Source of the DNA: Fibrobacteria bacterium
Lineage (GTDB): Bacteria > Fibrobacterota > Fibrobacteria > UBA11236
Assembly: GCA_043721115.1 (NCBI GenBank)
Contig: JAYSRH010000172.1
Coordinates: 1-37,239 of the forward strand
Reading direction: 5' to 3'
Length of the DNA: 37,239 nt
Part shown: piece after piece, positions 3,612 through 12,729 of the stretch
Position numbering within the stretch: the first letter of the stretch is position 1
Layout: each line of letters starts with the position of its first letter
Made by a program: the position numbers and the translations under genes
Notes under the pieces: model-generated
Seen by the model: only the letters and a program-made list of their open reading frames with translations
What the model was told of the DNA's origin: nothing
Database searches by the model: none

Positions 3612-5027
3612 TTATCCTCCAGGCTTTTTGGTCATCCTATAATAGATATCGTCTCGATTCCATCTTGATGAATATTTAGTCTTTATTGTGGGAGTGCTGC
3701 TTTTAGCAAGGCCGGACGCTTTGCTTGAACTAAGCACATTTAGTAAAGCTTCTTCCTGACCCTGCATATTCTCTATCCAGTAGACCGCGTTTCCGATTTG
3801 CGAAATATTTATGCGGGTATTTGGATTAATTAAAATTGAACGAACACCTGTATTGTTAGGTAAATCCGTTACCATAGTAGAATCCCATATTTTTCGTTTC
3901 AAATTTTTAGAATAAAGCATCGATCGGAATTCCGCGGCTTGCGCATTTAATTCAAACGAAAAACACCAGATAAAATTACCATCGGTTTGGTAATTATCAT
4001 TGGTATAGAAAAGGTGATCGCCGGTCCAGCCCAGTGCATCCTTTGCTACAGAGGAAGGTAATTCATCCTTTAGCATTCCGATAATATTTAGAATGCCCAA
4101 ATTAGCGTCTTCAATGTAATCGTTCGTTTTTGTAAAGATGATTGAGCGAATGGCTTCAGCAGGAAACTGGTGGTAAGCCACTTTTTTCCCTGTAATGGTT
4201 TCGGCGCTGGTTAAACCCTTGTCCTTCAAAGCAGCATTGACAGATCCCCAAGTATTATTGGAATATTTAAATAAATCTCGAATGAAAGCAGGGCCTATCA
4301 AGTAAGGGGAGAATGTCGTATATGTTAAATAAAATTCATTCAATGGGACATGGCTCAGAAGCTGAGGAAAATCAAACATCATATTTTTATTTAAATCAAT
4401 GCTGCTTTCTTGTTTGCTAAAAATCATTGCGTTGTATTCCGCGTCGCCCTCGATAACCATTCTGCGAGCAAACATAAAATCAACCTGTTGTTCTGCGTTT
4501 TGGGCTACTGAAGCTATATCTTTGTTAAAAACATCTAAGGCCTGATCTTGAAGGGCGTGAACGAGTTCGTGATAGATCGTATGTTTGAATTCCTCCCATT
4601 CCTCAATGGTTGGAATGGAATCACTTTTGATCACATATATTGTATCAGAATGCGGGATGTAAAAGCCCGCTACCGAGGAACCACTTAGCCCTTCTGATGA
4701 TTTATTGATTTCATAAGCGCTGTCTTCAACAATCCCCAATTGATAAATCTCTCGGTTAAAAAACTTATCCCCTTGAGAAACCGTGTTGTCTGCTTCCTTT
4801 CCTTGTTGCTGAATAAATTGTTGGCGGGACAGTGTGAGCGGAGTGATATGGCGCTTAAATTTAAGTCCCCGATTGACCTCGATGATAGGCATTAAAGAGT
4901 CCAATAATGCTACCACCTCAGGACTAATCGTGCCTATACTGCCTGGGGTAGGTCTAGGGTTTGCATCAAAAATACACCCGTTAAAAAACGAAATACAAAT
5001 CAGTATTCCATAAGTGATCTTATTCAT
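3612..5027 (-). CDS. putative zinc-metalloprotease-like lipoprotein (HExxH)
   Basis: Preferred start is MNKITYGILICISFFNGC (lipobox Cys). It has a single HExxH motif (IYHELVHALQD). It is an AT-rich gene with no closer family recognised. Confidence 0.6.
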   Translation of the reverse strand: MNKITYGILICISFFNGCIFDANPRPTPGSIGTISPEVVALLDSLMPIIEVNRGLKFKRHITPLTLSRQQFIQQQGKEADNTVSQGDKFFNREIYQLGIVEDSAYEINKSSEGLSGSSVAGFYIPHSDTIYVIKSDSIPTIEEWEEFKHTIYHELVHALQDQALDVFNKDIASVAQNAEQQVDFMFARRMVIEGDAEYNAMIFSKQESSIDLNKNMMFDFPQLLSHVPLNEFYLTYTTFSPYLIGPAFIRDLFKYSNNTWGSVNAALKDKGLTSAETITGKKVAYHQFPAEAIRSIIFTKTNDYIEDANLGILNIIGMLKDELPSSVAKDALGWTGDHLFYTNDNYQTDGNFIWCFSFELNAQAAEFRSMLYSKNLKRKIWDSTMVTDLPNNTGVRSILINPNTRINISQIGNAVYWIENMQGQEEALLNVLSSSKASGLAKSSTPTIKTKYSSRWNRDDIYYRMTKKPGG

Positions 5028-5392: not shown

Positions 5393-5582
5393 GCTGTGAC
5401 CTGTACCCACTTTATTGGACACACTGAACAGGTATATTATAAGAATGGAAAAATATTTGCCTCATTAGCGTTTGTCATAGCTCCCATTCAGCTTTAAACT
5501 CATGACCCAGTGACTCCCGACACAGTCACAAACCCAGATCCAGCCACCATGTCACCATCCAGGCTGGGAAGAAGAATTATTT

Positions 5583-5705
5583 AAAATGGCAAAGGTTAAG
5601 GTGAAAATTGCCAATCCGAAGAAAGAATAAAACCTTAGAAGCTGTGGAGTAAGGGGGTAGGCGAAGCATTCTTCTAGTCCTTCAATTGCATTTCCGAAAC
5701 CGACT
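5583..5705 (+). repeat. copy A of a ~120-bp diverged direct repeat carrying a mini-ORF (5586..5630, MAKVKVKIANPKKE)
   Basis: Hand alignment to 10378..10502 gives about 75 percent identity over about 100 nt plus a weaker tail. Shared blocks are ATGGCnAAGGTnAAnGTGAAAA, AATAAAA, GGGTAGGnGAAGCATTC. Confidence 0.75.
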
Positions 5706-5819
5706 CCGGCGAGCTACGTTAATCATCATTTGTCCTGCGACCCCTTAAAGAATTCCCGGAGCCTATAACTCTGAAAAAGAGAGTGCAACAAATGTCGTTT
5801 ATCTATGCATTGTTTTGAC

Positions 5820-6972
5820 ATGGCACAATCACATTTCGAAGAGCCCGGTGCTGGAATTCCGCACGCCGGGTTCTTGGCAAAAAATTGGGGAAAACGCCTT
5901 GGGTATTTGCTCGGAATCACATTGCTGTCGGTAATCCTGTTGATCGCCGCCGTACTCTGATTAGGTGTTTCCAAGGATATCCACACCTGGAAACCGCCGG
6001 AAGGCCTGCGCGCCGATGCCGGCCATCTGGATCCCGTGAAAATGGGAAAGGTCGTCGAGGTCTCTCCGGATTCGGCCGAGGCGGTGGCCCAGATCGTCGC
6101 CGCCCTAGCGGAGGCGCACACCCGCGGGCTCAAGGTTTCCATTTCCGGAGCTCGCCACAGCATGGGCGGCCAAACCGCCTATCTGGACGGCCAAGGCTAC
6201 GCGGTGCGCATCATGCAGTCGAACAATCCCTTCACGGTGGGCGGCACGCTTTCGGTCAACGCCCACGGCTGGCAGCACAACCAACCGCCCTTCGTCTCCA
6301 GAGTGGATGGGTTTCGTTTGATGACTGCGGACGGCGCAGTGAAGAATTGCAGCCGTTCTGAGAACGCGGAGCTGTTCAAAGCGGCCGCAGGAGTACCCGG
6401 CGCGTTACTATGCCCTCGTGGACGACGATTCCTCTCTGGGCCTCGTGTACGGGCGGCTTTCCATCGCTCCGTCCTCCTTCTTGTCCAAGGCCCTGATGAC
6501 GCGCTACATCAAGGTTCAGGGCGCGCCCATCCCTTTACCCGCGCATAGGGACGACGCATCGCTGATGGACAAGGTCAAGCATTGGATTTTCCTGGCCACG
6601 CGCAACCGCATCCTGGACGATCCCATCGACCTGTTCGAGAACCACGATTCCACACGCACGCAATTGCTGCATGAGTATTTCATCCCGCGAGATTCCCTGG
6701 AGGCCTTCTTGGTCCAGGCGCGAAAAATCATCCCGGCCCACGCCGGCGATCTGCTCAACCTCACCGTGCGCAGCCTGCGCGCCGATTCGGACGCTGTCCT
6801 AGCTTATGCCCGGCAGGACGTGTTCTCGCTGGTGATGCTGTATTCCCAACGGACGAATGCGGAGGGGGAAAAATCCATGGCGGCCGCCTTTTTCGCACTC
6901 AAGCGCAAATGCGATCCGGAAGAGATCTTTCAGAACAAGTTCTACCAGGAATATGGCCATCCCGCCCATTAG
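5820..6972 (+). pseudogene. decayed FAD-binding (PCMH-type) oxidase / lactone-oxidase-like gene
   Basis: ATG 5820 opens an N-terminal TM helix (KRLGYLLGITLLSVILLIAAVL), then an in-frame TGA at 5958..5960. The FAD-domain motifs follow (VSPDSAEAVAQIVAALAEAHTRGLKVSISGARHSMGGQ, TVGGTLSVNAHG). Too few residues separate these motifs, which suggests an internal deletion. The frame changes between about 6390 and 6420, and the C-terminal part continues (HEYFIPRDSLEAFL...KRKCDPEEIFQNKFYQEYG). Very GC-rich. Confidence 0.7.
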
Positions 6973-6980
6973 GAGTAAGC

Positions 6981-7214
6981 ATGGCCACCGGTCATAAAGG
7001 TACTTTCAAGGGCAATGTCCTCATCCAGAAACTGGCGTGGTTCTACGCCGCCAACTTCCTTTTCATCTTCATTATTTCCCATTGGCCCGGCCTCACGGAC
7101 TTCTCCATCACCACCTTCGGCCGCAATCTGCCGCATATCGTAATCCCCGTAAGCATGATGGCTATCGGGTTCGTGCTGGCGCGGCTCAAGCAGGCGCGCG
7201 CGAAAGCGGGTTGA
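6981..7214 (+). CDS. small integral membrane protein, hypothetical
   Basis: ATG 6981 is preceded by AGGAG. The 77-aa product has two hydrophobic helices (LAWFYAANFLFIFIISHW, IVIPVSMMAIGFVLA). It lies in the GC-rich cassette between two decayed genes. Confidence 0.5.
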   Translation: MATGHKGTFKGNVLIQKLAWFYAANFLFIFIISHWPGLTDFSITTFGRNLPHIVIPVSMMAIGFVLARLKQARAKAG

Positions 7215-7220
7215 TCTCCA

Positions 7221-8082
7221 ATGCGTAAGCGCAGAATCCTCTTGCTCGCCGCAGCGGCCGCGGTTATGGCCGAGGGCTTATCGGTCATGGTCTTCAAGCG
7301 ACGTTGCGCCGCGGCTAAACATAATTTCATACCGGTTTCCGCGGTTTTTCCGGAAGCCCTTAGGCGCGCGCAGGACTCGATCCCGAAATACCGCTGCCCT
7401 GAAGAAAGCACCTACTACGAGCGGATTCCCGTACTTGGCTTCCATCCGCCAATGCTGGACCGGATTCTGCGAGACCTGCGGAGCGACCCGCGAGCGGTAT
7501 CCGTTCAATGGCGGCAACTACCTGATGCTTACCGTGATCGGCGTCAGCTTCACGGCCGAGTACGCTATCAAGGAGGCCTGGGAAAACACCCTTGGGCGTT
7601 TTACGGAGTGGATTGCCGGCGGACAGCGCGTTTCCGAAGACGATTTCGCCGCGCGGGCGGCATACGATTAAGGCGCCTTCATCCCCACCGATCCCTGGTA
7701 CATGTTCCCCTTCCCCAAGAAGCTGAGTGAGGTCTGGAGCGATAATCCCTTCTGGGGGCATAACTTCATCCGCAAATGCGAGCGCAAAGTTTTTCTGACC
7801 TTGGAGTTCGGAGTCAAAAGCGTATACGCATGGCTGATCAAGATGGGAACACATTCCGTTTACGGAATCGCCGAAACCGAGGTTTACGCGTCCTTATTGT
7901 GCCCACCGGATTCTTTCTTCGCGGACCCGCGCGTGCGCCGCATCCTCGCCGTGAACGACAGTATCGCGATCGTTACCCTGCCGCATTACCAGGGCTTCAC
8001 CGACGCCGTACCCAGTCTGGCAGCGACACTGAACGATATGCCCGCCCAGGGCGCGCGGCTGGAACACTTTTTCGACTACTGA
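7221..8082 (+). pseudogene. decayed gene of unknown family (frameshift plus in-frame TAA)
   Basis: The N-terminal signal/TM segment MRKRRILLLAAAAAVMAEGL reads in frame 0. Plausible coding moves to frame 1 near 7440-7490 (RERYPFNGGNYLMLTVIGVSFTAEYAIKEAW...AARAAYD). A TAA at 7669..7671 follows, and the same frame stays open to 8082 (GAFIPTDPWYMFPFPKKLSEVW...). Confidence 0.6.
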
Positions 8083-8177
8083 GAAAATATTTTCATCGAA
8101 AAAGCCTGGCCACGCCTATTTAATATCTTCTGATGCTTGACTCCCTAGCCCGCCGAATTACCTAAATTTTGTAGATA

Positions 8178-8660
8178 ATGGAGCCAAGTCACCAAATACG
8201 GGCTATTAATTTCAAGATTAAAAAAGCGACCTTTAAAAACCTTGATCCAATTTCAATAATGTTCAATGACTATCGCGTTTTCTATAGAAAGAATCCGGAC
8301 ATAAACCTATCGCGAAGATTCATAAGCGATCGACTAATAAAAAAAGATTCCTGTATCTTGATCGCAATTTCAAGCTCAGGTAAAATCATGGGTTTCACTC
8401 AGCTTTACCCAAGCTTCTCATCTGTTGTCGCGAAGAAAATTTTTGTCTTGAATGACCTTTTTGTAATCGATGAGTTTAGAAGAATGGGCGTGGCCAAAAA
8501 ATTAATTGAAGAAAGTATTGGAATGGCTAGAAAGCTCCATTGTGCTCGCGTAGATCTTGCAACAGAGAAGATTAATAAAGGCGCGCAAAAACTATATGAC
8601 ACAATGGGATTCGTTGAGAATTATTGCTACAAATATTATAGCAAGTCTATCGCGAAGTAA
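8178..8660 (+). CDS. GNAT family N-acetyltransferase
   Basis: Acetyl-CoA binding motif FVIDEFRRMGVAKKLIEESI and C-terminal NKGAQKLYDTMGF. AT-rich. Confidence 0.75.
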   Translation: MEPSHQIRAINFKIKKATFKNLDPISIMFNDYRVFYRKNPDINLSRRFISDRLIKKDSCILIAISSSGKIMGFTQLYPSFSSVVAKKIFVLNDLFVIDEFRRMGVAKKLIEESIGMARKLHCARVDLATEKINKGAQKLYDTMGFVENYCYKYYSKSIAK

Positions 8661-8775
8661 GTTGAATTCAAGCAAATTTAAAACAAGTACGTTTTAATCC
8701 AGAAGGATGCAATCGGTTCTCCGAATGAGCAACCCGAGCTCGCAGGTTAATGGCTAGTTTTATGGACGGAATAAA

Positions 8776-9552
8776 ATGAATCAGGAAAAAAGACCCATAT
8801 TCAGAATTTGTTTGCTTATAATCGGACTTGCAACGGCATTTGGAAATAAAGGTGGCAGCCTCGAGGTACATCAGGCCTCGGCGGTTTTGAATGTCGTTAC
8901 TATTGCGAACCAAACCGCGTCAAAAAAAGTTCAGTACTTTGTATGTGTGAGGGATTCAGACCCGAAGCCCGAATTGAAGGAAAAAATAACCAAGCTTTTG
9001 CCAAATATTAAATGGTGTTCCGAATTTAAAATTTCAGATCGAAAAGGAAACAAGGAATACGAAGTCGTAAATCTCATTGAACCTTTCGTTTTACCTGCAA
9101 AGGAATACGTTTTTACAATCAAAGGAAGAAGAAAATTCCGATGCGAAATTCCATTCGATAACGGATACCCGACCTCAAAAACTGACTGCATAGAATTATT
9201 TCCAACGACCAATGCCATCATGGCAAGATCCAAGATATGGGAGCTTAGGCCTCTGAAACAAAATGCAATCTGTTGGTGTATTATCCGGGATTTGGATTCG
9301 TCTGACAAGCTGTTGCATATTGAGGTCGTGTGTCGGAAAAACGGGGCAGAAAGTTGGGATCTTGAGAAAATCCTGCCTCACTTGGCTATTACACAGACAG
9401 CTCTAGAAAAAAGTCTAGTGAATCCAAATAAAAAAGGGGATGTATACCCAGAACAATATGAAGAGCAGTTCACAAAATGGAAGGAAGAAAGAAGCAGAGG
9501 CCCAGCCTATATCTGTGATGAAAGTATTGAAAAATGCTTGGTGAAAAAATAA
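8776..9552 (+). CDS. hypothetical Cys-rich secreted protein
   Basis: Signal-like N-terminus (RPIFRICLLIIGLATAFG) and about ten further Cys in the mature part. No family recognised. Confidence 0.55.
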   Translation: MNQEKRPIFRICLLIIGLATAFGNKGGSLEVHQASAVLNVVTIANQTASKKVQYFVCVRDSDPKPELKEKITKLLPNIKWCSEFKISDRKGNKEYEVVNLIEPFVLPAKEYVFTIKGRRKFRCEIPFDNGYPTSKTDCIELFPTTNAIMARSKIWELRPLKQNAICWCIIRDLDSSDKLLHIEVVCRKNGAESWDLEKILPHLAITQTALEKSLVNPNKKGDVYPEQYEEQFTKWKEERSRGPAYICDESIEKCLVKK

Positions 9553-9589
9553 AAGTAGTTAGAAAATTTAAATAGTGCGGAAGAGTAAT

Positions 9590-10339
9590 ATGAATCAACT
9601 TGAAATAGCTCTTATTAGTGCCTCGGAGGATGAAAGAAAAAAAGAGGATTTTTATAGAATCTTAATTGATTCCGATATTTTTATAATTCCAAGTGGAAGG
9701 ATGCCTGAAACAAGGGGCGGTAAAATATTTACTGGTCAAACAATTCAACTCAAACAGATACCGATGCAGGATGGCAAGGCTTACACACCTTTTTTTACAA
9801 GTGAAGAAGTGTTGTCCAATTCCATTGCAGAAAAAGCGACCTATTTAAGGATGAATTCGCTTTCATTTTTTGAGCTTGTGAAAGGAACGGACGCAGTTCT
9901 AAATCCAGGAAATAATTTTGGAAAGTTCTTTTTGAAAGAAGAGATTCATAGCATATTGTCGGGTGATATATTTAAACAAGGTCGTCAAATTACGATTGAC
10001 AAGGAAACGCCCGCACTGGTGGGCGCTCCGGCTAATATTCCAAAAGATCTGCTGCAAAAATTAAGTGCTTTCTATCAAGAAAATAAAATCATTAAGGAGG
10101 CCTATCTAGCATGGATTCAAATTGGAGAAGCTGGTGAGCCTGCCCACTATTTAATAATGTTAAGGTCCACAAGTAGTGACAACCAGATTTTTGAAATATC
10201 GGGAGAAATTTGCAAAAACTGGCTCGGAAACCGAAAAGGAATATTCGATTTTATTTTTGATTCAGGCACAGACTTAAGTTTAATAATACGGAAATCAGGA
10301 ATTCGATTTTATAGGAGAAAATTGTTTGGATTTAATTGA
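9590..10339 (+). CDS. SseB-like (enhanced serine sensitivity protein) family protein
   Basis: N-terminal pattern NQLEIALISA..EDFYRILIDSDIFIIP ... DGKAYTPFFTSEEVL ... DAVLNPGNNFGKFFLKEEI resembles the SseB N-domain as recalled. ATG 9590 is preferred over GTG 9575. Confidence 0.5.
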   Translation: MNQLEIALISASEDERKKEDFYRILIDSDIFIIPSGRMPETRGGKIFTGQTIQLKQIPMQDGKAYTPFFTSEEVLSNSIAEKATYLRMNSLSFFELVKGTDAVLNPGNNFGKFFLKEEIHSILSGDIFKQGRQITIDKETPALVGAPANIPKDLLQKLSAFYQENKIIKEAYLAWIQIGEAGEPAHYLIMLRSTSSDNQIFEISGEICKNWLGNRKGIFDFIFDSGTDLSLIIRKSGIRFYRRKLFGFN

Positions 10340-10377
10340 AATGTAAGGTAGGTGCGGTGGACTCCGAGGAGCTTTTC

Positions 10378-10502
10378 AATATGGCGAAGGTCAAAGTGAA
10401 AAAGGCCTATCCCAAAAACAATAAAAGCTTCGTAGCTTCGGTTTAATTAGGGTAGGGGAAGCATTCCTCTATTTCCGGCTTCCGTCAAAATGCGATGCCG
10501 AT
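10378..10502 (+). repeat. copy B of the ~120-bp diverged direct repeat with mini-ORF (10381..10446, MAKVKVKKAYPKNNKSFVASV)
   Basis: See copy A. GAGGAG lies 9 nt upstream of the ATG. Five of the eight substitutions in the first 12 codons are synonymous. Confidence 0.75.
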
Positions 10503-10568
10503 CCTCCACTACCCCACAGATCCGCCGCCCCTTGGGATTTCTACGTTTCCAGGTAGCCGAAGGCAATC

Positions 10569-11156
10569 ATGACTATACCAATCAACCAAGCCCGGATCTC
10601 ACGTTTCGCCAAGTCCGTGAGCTATGTAAACGCCCTGGATGTGCAGCAAAAGGTCGCACTTTCGGATGAGATATTTGAAAAACAGCCAGAGCTCCTATTA
10701 GAGGTAATCGGACTAAAGTTTTTGAGCGTGTCCGTGCAGCACATTGAACATCTTCTGAACCTTCTGTTCATTTTCTATGACTACTTCCACGCGCGGGGGA
10801 CGGTTGAGCTCCCCCAGGTCAACGATGAAATGATGGACAAGGCGAGTTCGAATATTAAATCAATGCTGAAACTCATGGATAAGGAGGGTCAAGTAGAGTG
10901 GCTCCGGATTATTGGGAAAGGTATTGAGGCTTACCCAGAAGTAGAAGCGATGGCATACTTTTCCAGTTATATGCACGAAAACGGATTCGGCAAGTTCTCG
11001 AGAGAAAATGAAATCTGCCTTCGAACCGGAAAAATGGTCCTGGACTGCTTCACCCATGTAAAGCATCTGAAACGAAATGCGACCCTTCAGCAAAAAGGAT
11101 CTGGCAACAACCAACTGAGGGCTAAAAAAAGAATATCCACCATTTCCAGGAAATAA
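10569..11156 (+). CDS. hypothetical protein
   Basis: 195-codon ATG ORF, predicted cytoplasmic with a basic C-terminal tail. No motif recognised. Confidence 0.55.
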   Translation: MTIPINQARISRFAKSVSYVNALDVQQKVALSDEIFEKQPELLLEVIGLKFLSVSVQHIEHLLNLLFIFYDYFHARGTVELPQVNDEMMDKASSNIKSMLKLMDKEGQVEWLRIIGKGIEAYPEVEAMAYFSSYMHENGFGKFSRENEICLRTGKMVLDCFTHVKHLKRNATLQQKGSGNNQLRAKKRISTISRK

Positions 11157-11250
11157 TTTTCTCGAATGCTCGTTGTAAAATCATGAAAGTATCCACTCAA
11201 TTCAACGATGAAAAGTATGAGGAAATAATCGCCTACTGGAGAAAGCCCAA

Positions 11251-11535
11251 TTGAAATACATCCTCGTGGTTCGATCCGGAACCGAATTCGTTAAGGATAC
11301 GCCACCCATTCTCGCCTCGACCCTCAAAGAACCATTCGATCAAATAGCCGTATTCGGAGTGGGTCGCGCCACCTGGGAAGATGTCATCGACGAAATCCTC
11401 GTCGGGGACGGTCAAAACCCCGATGAGCTACCGACGACGTCCAGTCACCCCAAGGAAAACCAGAAGCAAGTTTTGGACTTTGCGAATACCATCTATCCAG
11501 GCGAAGAACGAAAAATCCAAATCATCGATATTTGA
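11251..11535 (+). CDS. hypothetical small protein (start uncertain)
   Basis: 94-codon ORF that can only start at TTG 11251. A 23-codon ATG ORF (11183..11254) ends in a different frame overlapping this TTG, so an old frameshift is possible. Confidence 0.4.
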   Translation: MKYILVVRSGTEFVKDTPPILASTLKEPFDQIAVFGVGRATWEDVIDEILVGDGQNPDELPTTSSHPKENQKQVLDFANTIYPGEERKIQIIDI

Positions 11536-11575
11536 TTCGGTTGCATTCTCGGATATTGGATTTAAGGAGGAAAAC

Positions 11576-12010
11576 CTGAACATTTCGCATCTACTTGCCC
11601 TCCTGCTGGCAGCGGTTTCATTGGCTACGGCCCATGCGCCCAGACCAGACTATATCCACTATGGAATTTTCGTCCGCGAAACACCTGATTCGACTACAGA
11701 GTGGCCATGGACAAGAATCACACTTTATCACGATGGTAAGTTTGGTATCGAATTAGGAGATCCTGAGGGCGAGTCTGAGCTTGGTTACGGCAATTTTGAA
11801 TATGCTGGCGACACATTAATTTTGAAGAATATCGAAAGCTCTCTTTTTTCAAATGGCTGGCCTTGGGACCTAGACAATATAATGATTCCGGAATTAAGAT
11901 ACCTAACCCGTACCCACAAAAAGCATTCCTTCGAAATTCTACCTCTGACCAAGGGAGCCAAGAAGCCGCCAAAGTGGACCAAACTCGAACGACCATCAAA
12001 ATGCAAGTAA
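11576..12010 (+). CDS. hypothetical secreted protein (non-ATG start inferred)
   Basis: AAGGAGG at 11564..11570 lies 5 nt before in-frame CTG 11576. Signal peptide LNISHLLALLLAAVSLATAHA follows. The 5' part of the track ORF 11381.. overlaps the previous gene and looks non-coding. Confidence 0.45.
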   Translation: MNISHLLALLLAAVSLATAHAPRPDYIHYGIFVRETPDSTTEWPWTRITLYHDGKFGIELGDPEGESELGYGNFEYAGDTLILKNIESSLFSNGWPWDLDNIMIPELRYLTRTHKKHSFEILPLTKGAKKPPKWTKLERPSKCK

Positions 12011-12038
12011 CTGCAGGACCTAAGAACCGAGAACGGAA

Positions 12039-12389
12039 ATGAAAACCTCTCATCCTGAATACGGTATGTTCCTTGTTTTCATTTTCTTGGTTTTCCTCTT
12101 CGCAGGCTGCAAAGACCCGATAGACTACCTCAACAAAAACAAAGCCGAAGTTGTCCTTATCAATAGGGCAGGGGAGCCACTCGTATCAGGCACCCTCTCG
12201 ATTTCAAACCATACCCCTTCCGTAAAAGTGGGCAGAATCGAAAACGATTCCACCGGTTACGTCACCAACGGAATGAACTTCAAGGAAGATCTGATCCTAA
12301 TCAAGATGGGGGATTCATTTGCATTGGTGCTCAAGCGAGACTCTACTTTTTCAGACCCATCAAATAAATATGACAATAACCCCAGATGA
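12039..12389 (+). CDS. hypothetical lipoprotein, possibly interrupted (in-frame TGA, frame open to 12632)
   Basis: Lipobox FLFAGC. Stop TGA at 12387..12389 is followed by 80 more stop-free codons in the same frame, ending ...GNGAISIAHAIAMGVCGT. Confidence 0.55.
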   Translation: MKTSHPEYGMFLVFIFLVFLFAGCKDPIDYLNKNKAEVVLINRAGEPLVSGTLSISNHTPSVKVGRIENDSTGYVTNGMNFKEDLILIKMGDSFALVLKRDSTFSDPSNKYDNNPR

Positions 12390-12729
12390 GCCCAAAGTGA
12401 ATCCCATTACAATCAAGCTGGTGAGATCAATGACCCCATCAGGACCTATGCCATTATCAATGACACCGTTCGAATGTCGTCCCGGAATTTCAAAATCGCA
12501 AGCATTATAAATCCCCTCGATGGCTGGACCGTGCCCTTCAAATACGATGGCCGGTATTGCTCCGCTTTAACGCTCGGAAATGGTGCAATCTCAATTGCAC
12601 ATGCAATTGCAATGGGAGTTTGTGGAACTTAAGGATTGATAAGGGGCTTCGATTTACCTATGCTCCTGTATTTTATAAAGAATTTCCAATACGTTTTTTC
12701 GGTCAGGAAAGAAAGTGAGGGCTTCATAA

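Follow-up and report, generated by a model that had tools for sequence, protein, structure and literature searches.

Two diverged direct repeats in a Fibrobacteria contig as possible old copies of a two-part module with a micro-ORF and a hairpin

The window analysed in our study, a 37,239-nt stretch of contig JAYSRH010000172.1 from a Fibrobacteria genome assembly (GCA_043721115.1), contains two diverged direct repeats, copy A and copy B, which enclose an interval of 4.7 kb. The explanation that we hold to be the most probable, although only tentatively, is that they are two old paralogous copies of a small two-part module, composed of a putatively translated micro-ORF (open reading frame) and a hairpin. 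The pattern of divergence between the copies shows the first half of the repeat as constrained for amino acids and the second half as constrained for nucleotides, and the module is restricted to one Fibrobacteria lineage.

As the original prediction had placed them, the two copies lie in the same orientation and outside recognisable genes. When compared by blastn with the whole assembly (genome G000, 4.16 Mb in 579 contigs, 49% GC, 88% complete), each copy had the other as its sole significant match, with 76.5% identity over 98 nt (5580-5676 vs 10375-10471, E 5e-12). The score of their local alignment is 77, while shuffled sequences scored 15 +/- 2 and 0/300 shuffles reached 77. The previously described start of both copies (ATG GCn AAG GTn AAn GTG AAA), the 1-nt indel leading to frames of 14 and 21 codons, and the block GGGTAGGnGAAGCATTCyTCTA, present at 5655-5676 and 10450-10471, were all found again. 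The extent of the repeat, on the other hand, had to be redrawn, as the similarity does not start at the ATG but about 15 nt before it (5571 and 10366), and instead of reaching 5705 and 10502 it stops at about 5676-5682 and 10471-10477. Outside these borders identity is random (6/51 and 13/51 on the two sides, 12-25%), and no comparison of the flanks, same-side or cross-side, rose above shuffles. With flanks at random identity, the repeat is a real and discrete unit of ~105 nt, and its being part of a larger duplication or of a larger duplicated gene could be ruled out.

In regard to the first half of the repeat, the copies can be aligned without gaps over 17 codons in the frame of the ATG. They differ at 14 nucleotides, of which 11 are third codon positions. 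In nine codons the change is synonymous and in three non-synonymous, five being identical, giving EELF[K/N]MAKVKVK[I/K]A[N/Y]PK. When the same number and kind of substitutions were placed randomly, three or fewer non-synonymous codons were obtained with a P of about 5e-5, and the two other frames of the block hold 1 synonymous vs 15-16 non-synonymous changes. Likewise, identity by codon position 1/2/3 amounts to 15/17, 16/17 and 6/17 (Fisher P 6e-5 for position 3 vs 1+2), which means that third positions are essentially saturated (35% identical). Considered separately, the codons from the ATG to the end of the block and the five that precede it each give a P of about 0.02, as calculated from the listed positions. 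A synonymous excess in one frame only, the mark of a small ORF (sORF), is thus present in the A/B pair. A small-protein or leader-peptide gene was among the proposals of the original prediction, and the coding pattern on which it rested is not only confirmed but stronger than had been noted, with nine synonymous to three non-synonymous codons among the 17.

The second half follows a different regime. The 56 columns downstream of the codon block are 75% identical, compared with 35% at the third positions (P 0.004). Saturated third positions, together with the 75% identity downstream and the random flanks, indicate that the similarity is kept by selection and does not come from recent copying; the sharp edges of the repeat can therefore be limits of constraint. 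The conserved 22-nt block forms the core of a hairpin which is kept in all four variants (B -10.5, A -9.7, G004 -9.9 and G002 -7.4 kcal/mol), including G004, although the mini-ORF part is absent there. No U-run follows the hairpin and the terminator scan does not call it. For its 3' pyrimidine arm (UUCCUC) there are two possible partners, the 5' arm of the hairpin and the Shine-Dalgarno (SD) and purine stretch before the ATG of the mini-ORF. The block of copy B can also pair with a downstream CUACCC...UCC segment, and copy A is without such a partner.

Positions of the repeat copies, their parts and the neighbouring features in the window
Feature	Position	Strand	Basis or remark
Copy A: coding-type block, spacer and hairpin	5571..5682	+	Covariance model R1, 133.5 bits
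Copy B, between the SseB-like gene and the 195-aa orphan gene	10366..10477	+	R1, 137.3 bits; ortholog G002:C469:5579-5696
17-codon block of copy A with protein-coding divergence pattern (EELFKMAKVKVKIANPK)	5571..5621	+	Codon-position identity
Equivalent 17-codon block of copy B (EELFNMAKVKVKKAYPK)	10366..10416	+	Codon-position identity
Mini-ORF A from ATG (MAKVKVKIANPKKE, then stop)	5586..5630	+	Read from sequence and alignment
Mini-ORF B from ATG (MAKVKVKKAYPKNNKSFVASV, then stop)	10381..10446	+	GAGGAG 10 nt upstream
Hairpin of copy A, contains GGGTAGGCGAAGCATTCTTCTA	5652..5682	+	-9.7 kcal/mol
Hairpin of copy B, core UAGGGGAA-GCA-UUCCUCUA	10450..10476	+	-10.5 kcal/mol
293-nt segment holding copy A, absent from G002	5531..5823		Junction in 10-nt direct repeats
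R2, remnant of a group II intron 3' end (domain V/VI-like)	5796..5911	+	RF00029, 25.3 bits
GC-rich (55-64%) frameshifted FAD-linked-oxidase-like pseudogene cassette	5880..8100	+	Intact ortholog in an operon of G012
SseB-like gene directly upstream of copy B	9575..10339	+	PF07179, PF14581
195-aa orphan gene (p195) directly downstream of copy B	10569..11156	+	Patchy homologs in phylum

The distribution of the module was followed with the covariance model R1, built from copies A and B and run on 296 genomes of the phylum Fibrobacterota, with laxer filters on 39 relatives. Within the own genome, blastn and pattern scans revealed no copy beyond A and B. Outside it, the model found a single further full-length element among the 296 genomes and 39 relatives, in the sister metagenome-assembled genome G002. 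This element is the ortholog of copy B, as it has the same SseB-like and 195-aa neighbours and flanks that are 96% identical. A partial match of 21 bits in G004 comprises the hairpin part of copy B. The count of copies in the genome and its relatives, suggested with the original prediction, thus ends at two in the genome itself, with only the ortholog of B and the G004 partial among relatives. Four Logan contigs from other samples (SRR22198305, SRR23617295, SRR22198347 and SRR23617214) bear copies identical to either the G000 or the G002 version, and there are no further strains on record that span copy A. BLAST against 61 relatives gave only chance matches after inspection. DNA scans found no homolog in 185,579 species genomes, JGI metagenomes, IMG/VR, phages and plasmids, matches in the metagenomes being at chance level, and patterns derived from the peptide found none in the 185,579 species genomes and IMG/VR. 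Furthermore, a six-frame peptide search of the 296 genomes yielded nothing outside G000 and G002, and no mention of MAKVKVK was found in the literature.

According to the explanation that we prefer, the first part of the module would be a short translated frame with the core EELF-x-MAKVKVK-x-A-x-PK, and the second part about 45 nt of conserved spacer followed by a hairpin of 8-12 bp. Copy B would be the working copy, which we infer from its SD (GAGGAG-N10-ATG, GAGGAA in G002) and from its position between two genes. Its frame has 21 codons from the ATG and is open up to TTG 10336, which overlaps the stop codon of the SseB-like gene as TTGA and would extend it to 36 codons. As it lies on the sense strand, with the SseB-like gene before it and p195 after it, it would be co-transcribed with them, and its retention in G002 and in the four Logan contigs speaks for the same explanation. 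Copy A, by comparison, may be a decaying paralog: it has no GGAG-type SD (GAAGAAGAA stands upstream), it is reduced to 14 codons by an apparent frameshift due to one extra base at 5618-5624 relative to B, without which the frame would end at the aligned TAA of B, it sits among debris of mobile elements, and it is missing from the sister genome. The product could be a free basic peptide, or it could act only during its synthesis, as a leader that sets the fate of the downstream message; we lean towards a cis-acting leader or a small peptide made from the SseB-like/p195 transcript. The unit has no conserved promoter on either strand. On the minus strand, copy A contains a 30-aa ORF which is not conserved in B, and the terminator-like hairpins there were discarded, as they are weak, non-homologous and not called by the terminator scan.

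Several observations weigh against such an explanation. The borders of the 17-codon block were set after inspection, which makes its true significance somewhat weaker, and selection is deduced from a single old pairwise comparison, with three distinct full-length sequences in all. The coding signal already begins five codons before the ATG, in a part of copy A without a start codon, and the C-terminal tails of A and B, after correction of the frame, differ by 6 non-synonymous changes and 0 synonymous ones. In the comparison of G000 with G002, copy B has 8/118 differences and the remainder of the spacer 5/111, so that the copy does not stand out as better conserved, and all three changes downstream of the conserved block are non-synonymous. 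The peptide has no homolog elsewhere in the collections searched, and of the 13 genomes in which the 195-aa gene has homologs, all but G000 and G002 are without the element upstream of it. Finally, in constrained folding the ribosome-binding site of the 195-aa gene is unpaired with a probability of 0.50 whether or not the mini-ORF is blocked.

Some of these points fit the main rival, unlikely as we consider it, in which both copies are dead remnants without present function: of two larger genes, homologous to each other, the last ~20 codons and a 3' untranslated hairpin would be left. The parent genes would have diverged while working elsewhere, and their bodies would later have been overwritten in a decaying region. 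Such an origin would account for a coding signature that extends before the ATG, including in copy A with no start codon there, and it suits a region that is a patchwork of pseudogenes and mobile-element fragments differing among G000, G002 and G004, in which copy A is dispensable and copy B is not conserved beyond its surroundings when G000 and G002 are compared. However, it needs two independent truncations at the same codon, while before copy B there is room for no more than 36 codons, the SseB-like gene being intact, and the ATG is kept at the same place in both copies. Besides, no gene with such a C-terminus was found in the 296 phylum genomes or in the 185,579 species genomes. Related to this, the possibility that the mini-ORF derives from the 3' end of the tautomerase gene found in G004 was rejected, with no protein or DNA similarity above shuffles and no Pfam match. 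The remaining alternatives, in which the repeat acts only as RNA, marks an integration or is a mobile repeat, fit the data less well. A non-coding or cis-regulatory RNA, in which the frame is incidental and a multi-stem fold is conserved (outer stem GAGGA/UCCUC, start-codon hairpin, CCUAUCC/GGGUAGG and terminal hairpin), appears quite improbable to us. RNAalifold does propose a fold common to both copies, in which the alternative outer stem has two compensatory pairs, and both the hairpin in all variants and the conservation of spacer and hairpin as nucleotides would agree with it. Nevertheless, the whole elements fold no better than shuffles (minimum free energy z-scores +0.94 for A and -1.0 for B), two outer-stem pairs are broken in G002, and the 22-nt block differs between the copies at two positions that lie opposite each other in the fold but form a C-U mismatch in A. 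In addition, 11 of 14 changes at third codon positions are not predicted by a fold, the lack of a conserved promoter offers no help, and Rfam gave no match at the gathering score in the window and only chance-level matches at E up to 10 on the copies. The non-coding RNA element suggested in the original prediction is therefore not supported.

The same prediction had also considered degenerate attL/attR-like scars of an insertion, or a MITE-like element (miniature inverted-repeat transposable element). If the 4.7-kb interval had been integrated, the copies would be its attL/attR-type repeats, and they do resemble the ends of integrated islands in being direct, same-orientation repeats around compositionally atypical genes (GC 36-64% vs 49% in the genome). 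Coding-type divergence would suit a duplicated gene end as well, including the variant in which an element enters the 3' end of a gene and brings a replacement end. But what G002 lacks is only the 293-nt piece with copy A, bounded by the 10-nt microhomology of CACAGTCACA (5521-5530) and CACAATCACA (5823-5832): its sequence runs from ...CACAGTCACA directly into TTTCGAAGAG, similarity beyond the 10 nt not being significant. The 293 nt also take in the 5' part of R2 common to the G006 and G007 copies, so that a deletion in G002 is the simplest reading. The interior genes and copy B are retained in G002, the former further decayed and with an extra 1.4 kb. No empty site with a single copy, in which 5.7-10.4 kb would be precisely missing, was found in 15 genomes of the genus. 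Among the larger ORFs between the copies and beside them, up to 14 kb, no integrase was detected by Pfam, and the window holds no tRNA or tmRNA. The longest identical run of the copies is 9 nt (GAAGCATTC) in a pair that is 76% identical, although old scars could have decayed, and no gene body is joined to either of them. The interior is itself a mosaic, with a FAD-linked oxidase that is intact in an operon of G012 and AT-rich genes that vary among G000, G002 and G004. Loss of copy A without loss of the interior, and no empty site, integrase or tRNA, leave an origin by integration unsupported and in our opinion very unlikely, and the bracketing of "foreign" DNA looks incidental, in a stretch prone to rearrangement. 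The R''/R' consensus of an integron attC site (RYYYAAC ... GTTRRRY) can be read in neither copy; the arms between the stems are very unequal (35 nt vs 5 nt) and most junctions of the array are without such a site. Equally hard to credit is the relic of a miniature mobile element, MITE or REP-like (repetitive extragenic palindrome), with short terminal inverted repeats. The unit of ~105 nt is discrete, has inverted ends of 7-8 nt (AGAAGAAT/ATTCTTCT) and adjoins other short dispersed repeats, R2 and the family at 12576-12667. Still, the genome has only two copies, the 296 phylum genomes have none save the ortholog of B, no element elsewhere matches, the bases adjoining the inverted ends are not duplicated as a target site would be, and divergence phased by codons is not predicted by a mobile repeat.

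The surroundings of copy A are a patchwork of mobile-element debris. Upstream of it, 5397-5453 matches G004:C76:42-99 with 84% identity, where it precedes a frame starting MRMRKSKKSDRRTFTPTFK; as this frame looks like the start of an IS3-family OrfA, the segment is probably the remnant of an insertion-sequence end. Downstream, R2 belongs to a dispersed, genus-wide family of ~110 nt, also found at G007:C58:1-338, G006:C155:3213-3307 and G002:C469:129-215 and 4222-4294. Its copies share a conserved 38-nt 5' part (CGTTTATCTATG..TTGTTTTGACATGGTACAATCACA) and occur at gene-cassette junctions and contig ends. Two tandem copies in G007 reach 39.0 and 39.1 bits with RF00029, for which the gathering score is 40, and the copy in the window, with 25.3 bits, stays below it. 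Genuine group II introns above threshold are present in four genomes of the genus. The likeness to 3' remnants of group II introns, in a domain V/VI-like fold and in dispersal, belongs to R2 and not to repeat A/B, which shares no sequence with R2 or with the intron-bearing genomes. R2 has also replaced the first codons of the FAD-linked-oxidase-like pseudogene, further deleted in G002, whose intact counterpart in G012 (C89:16358-17500, 74-79% identity) lies in an operon with its start overlapping the stop of the upstream gene. The interval has the contents previously described, with this GC-rich, decayed and frameshifted cassette followed by a GNAT gene, a gene for a DUF5086 protein and the SseB-like gene, after which come copy B and the 195-aa orphan.

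The AT-rich, same-strand array at 8100-12250, in which copy B is found, differs in gene content among close relatives (G002:C469 and G004:C120). Between the DUF5086 and SseB-like genes, G002 holds in addition a SIMPL (DUF541) gene, a 102-aa ORF and a second R2 copy, and its identity with G000 falls to 87-88% in 5824-6036 and 8061-9553, compared with 96-97% elsewhere, which suggests recombination patches. In G004 a tautomerase gene replaces the SseB-like gene, homology with the window resumes at 10448, where the hairpin block of copy B is reached, and the 195-aa gene is reduced to 17 codons. The 195-aa protein is all-helical, without a Pfam or PADLOC match and with a structure model of mean pLDDT 42, too low to be of use; its homologs are scattered over 13 of the 296 phylum genomes, with 23-95% identity and different neighbours in each. 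A further dispersed repeat of ~90 nt, at 12576-12667, lies in the open extension after the TGA of a 116-aa lipoprotein gene and has copies with 82-88% identity in G006 (four contigs, at the start of two of them), G004 and G002.

Compared with known systems, the repeat is closest to the bacterial sORFs of fewer than 50 codons that lack annotation: a very short, basic and lysine-rich frame with an SD, then a hairpin, missed by gene callers and conserved between copies at the level of amino acids. It differs from them in not encoding a K/A/P repeat peptide, in having no evident promoter of its own, in its restriction to one lineage and in the degeneration of one copy. Copy B also recalls leaders of the ermCL/ermDL and trpL type, as a short ORF just upstream of a same-strand gene whose SD can pair with a downstream pyrimidine stretch (UUCCUC), allowing alternative pairings. 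In the most specific version of this comparison, which we regard as a long shot, copy B would be a nascent-peptide sensor: MAKVKVK, with its two overlapping Arg/Lys-X-Arg/Lys arrest motifs, would stall the ribosome together with a tunnel-binding small molecule (e.g. a macrolide-like natural product), and the stalled ribosome would free the SD/anti-SD hairpin system and switch on the 195-aa orphan gene. Constrained folding gave no support to such an ermC-type switch on the ribosome-binding site of that gene, the accessibility of which is indifferent to occupancy of the mini-ORF. Unlike ermCL and trpL, copy B has no U-run terminator, homologs of the 195-aa gene occur without the leader, and this gene is not a known resistance or biosynthesis gene; copy A lacks even the downstream partner sequences.

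Regarding the meaning of these results, the 4.7-kb interval should not be annotated as an att-bounded island, and sharp repeat edges can mark the limits of selection and not those of a mobile element. A single old paralog pair can expose coding constraint through codon-phased divergence, even when other homologs are lacking. If copy B acts as a sensor, an environmental lineage of Fibrobacteria would have in the 195-aa gene a new gene for inducible resistance or response. Translation of copy B, if it occurs, would add another lineage-restricted micro-gene without annotation to the tiny basic peptides missed by gene callers, and would help to approach how an orphan gene array is regulated in uncultured Fibrobacteria of the glacier-stream type.

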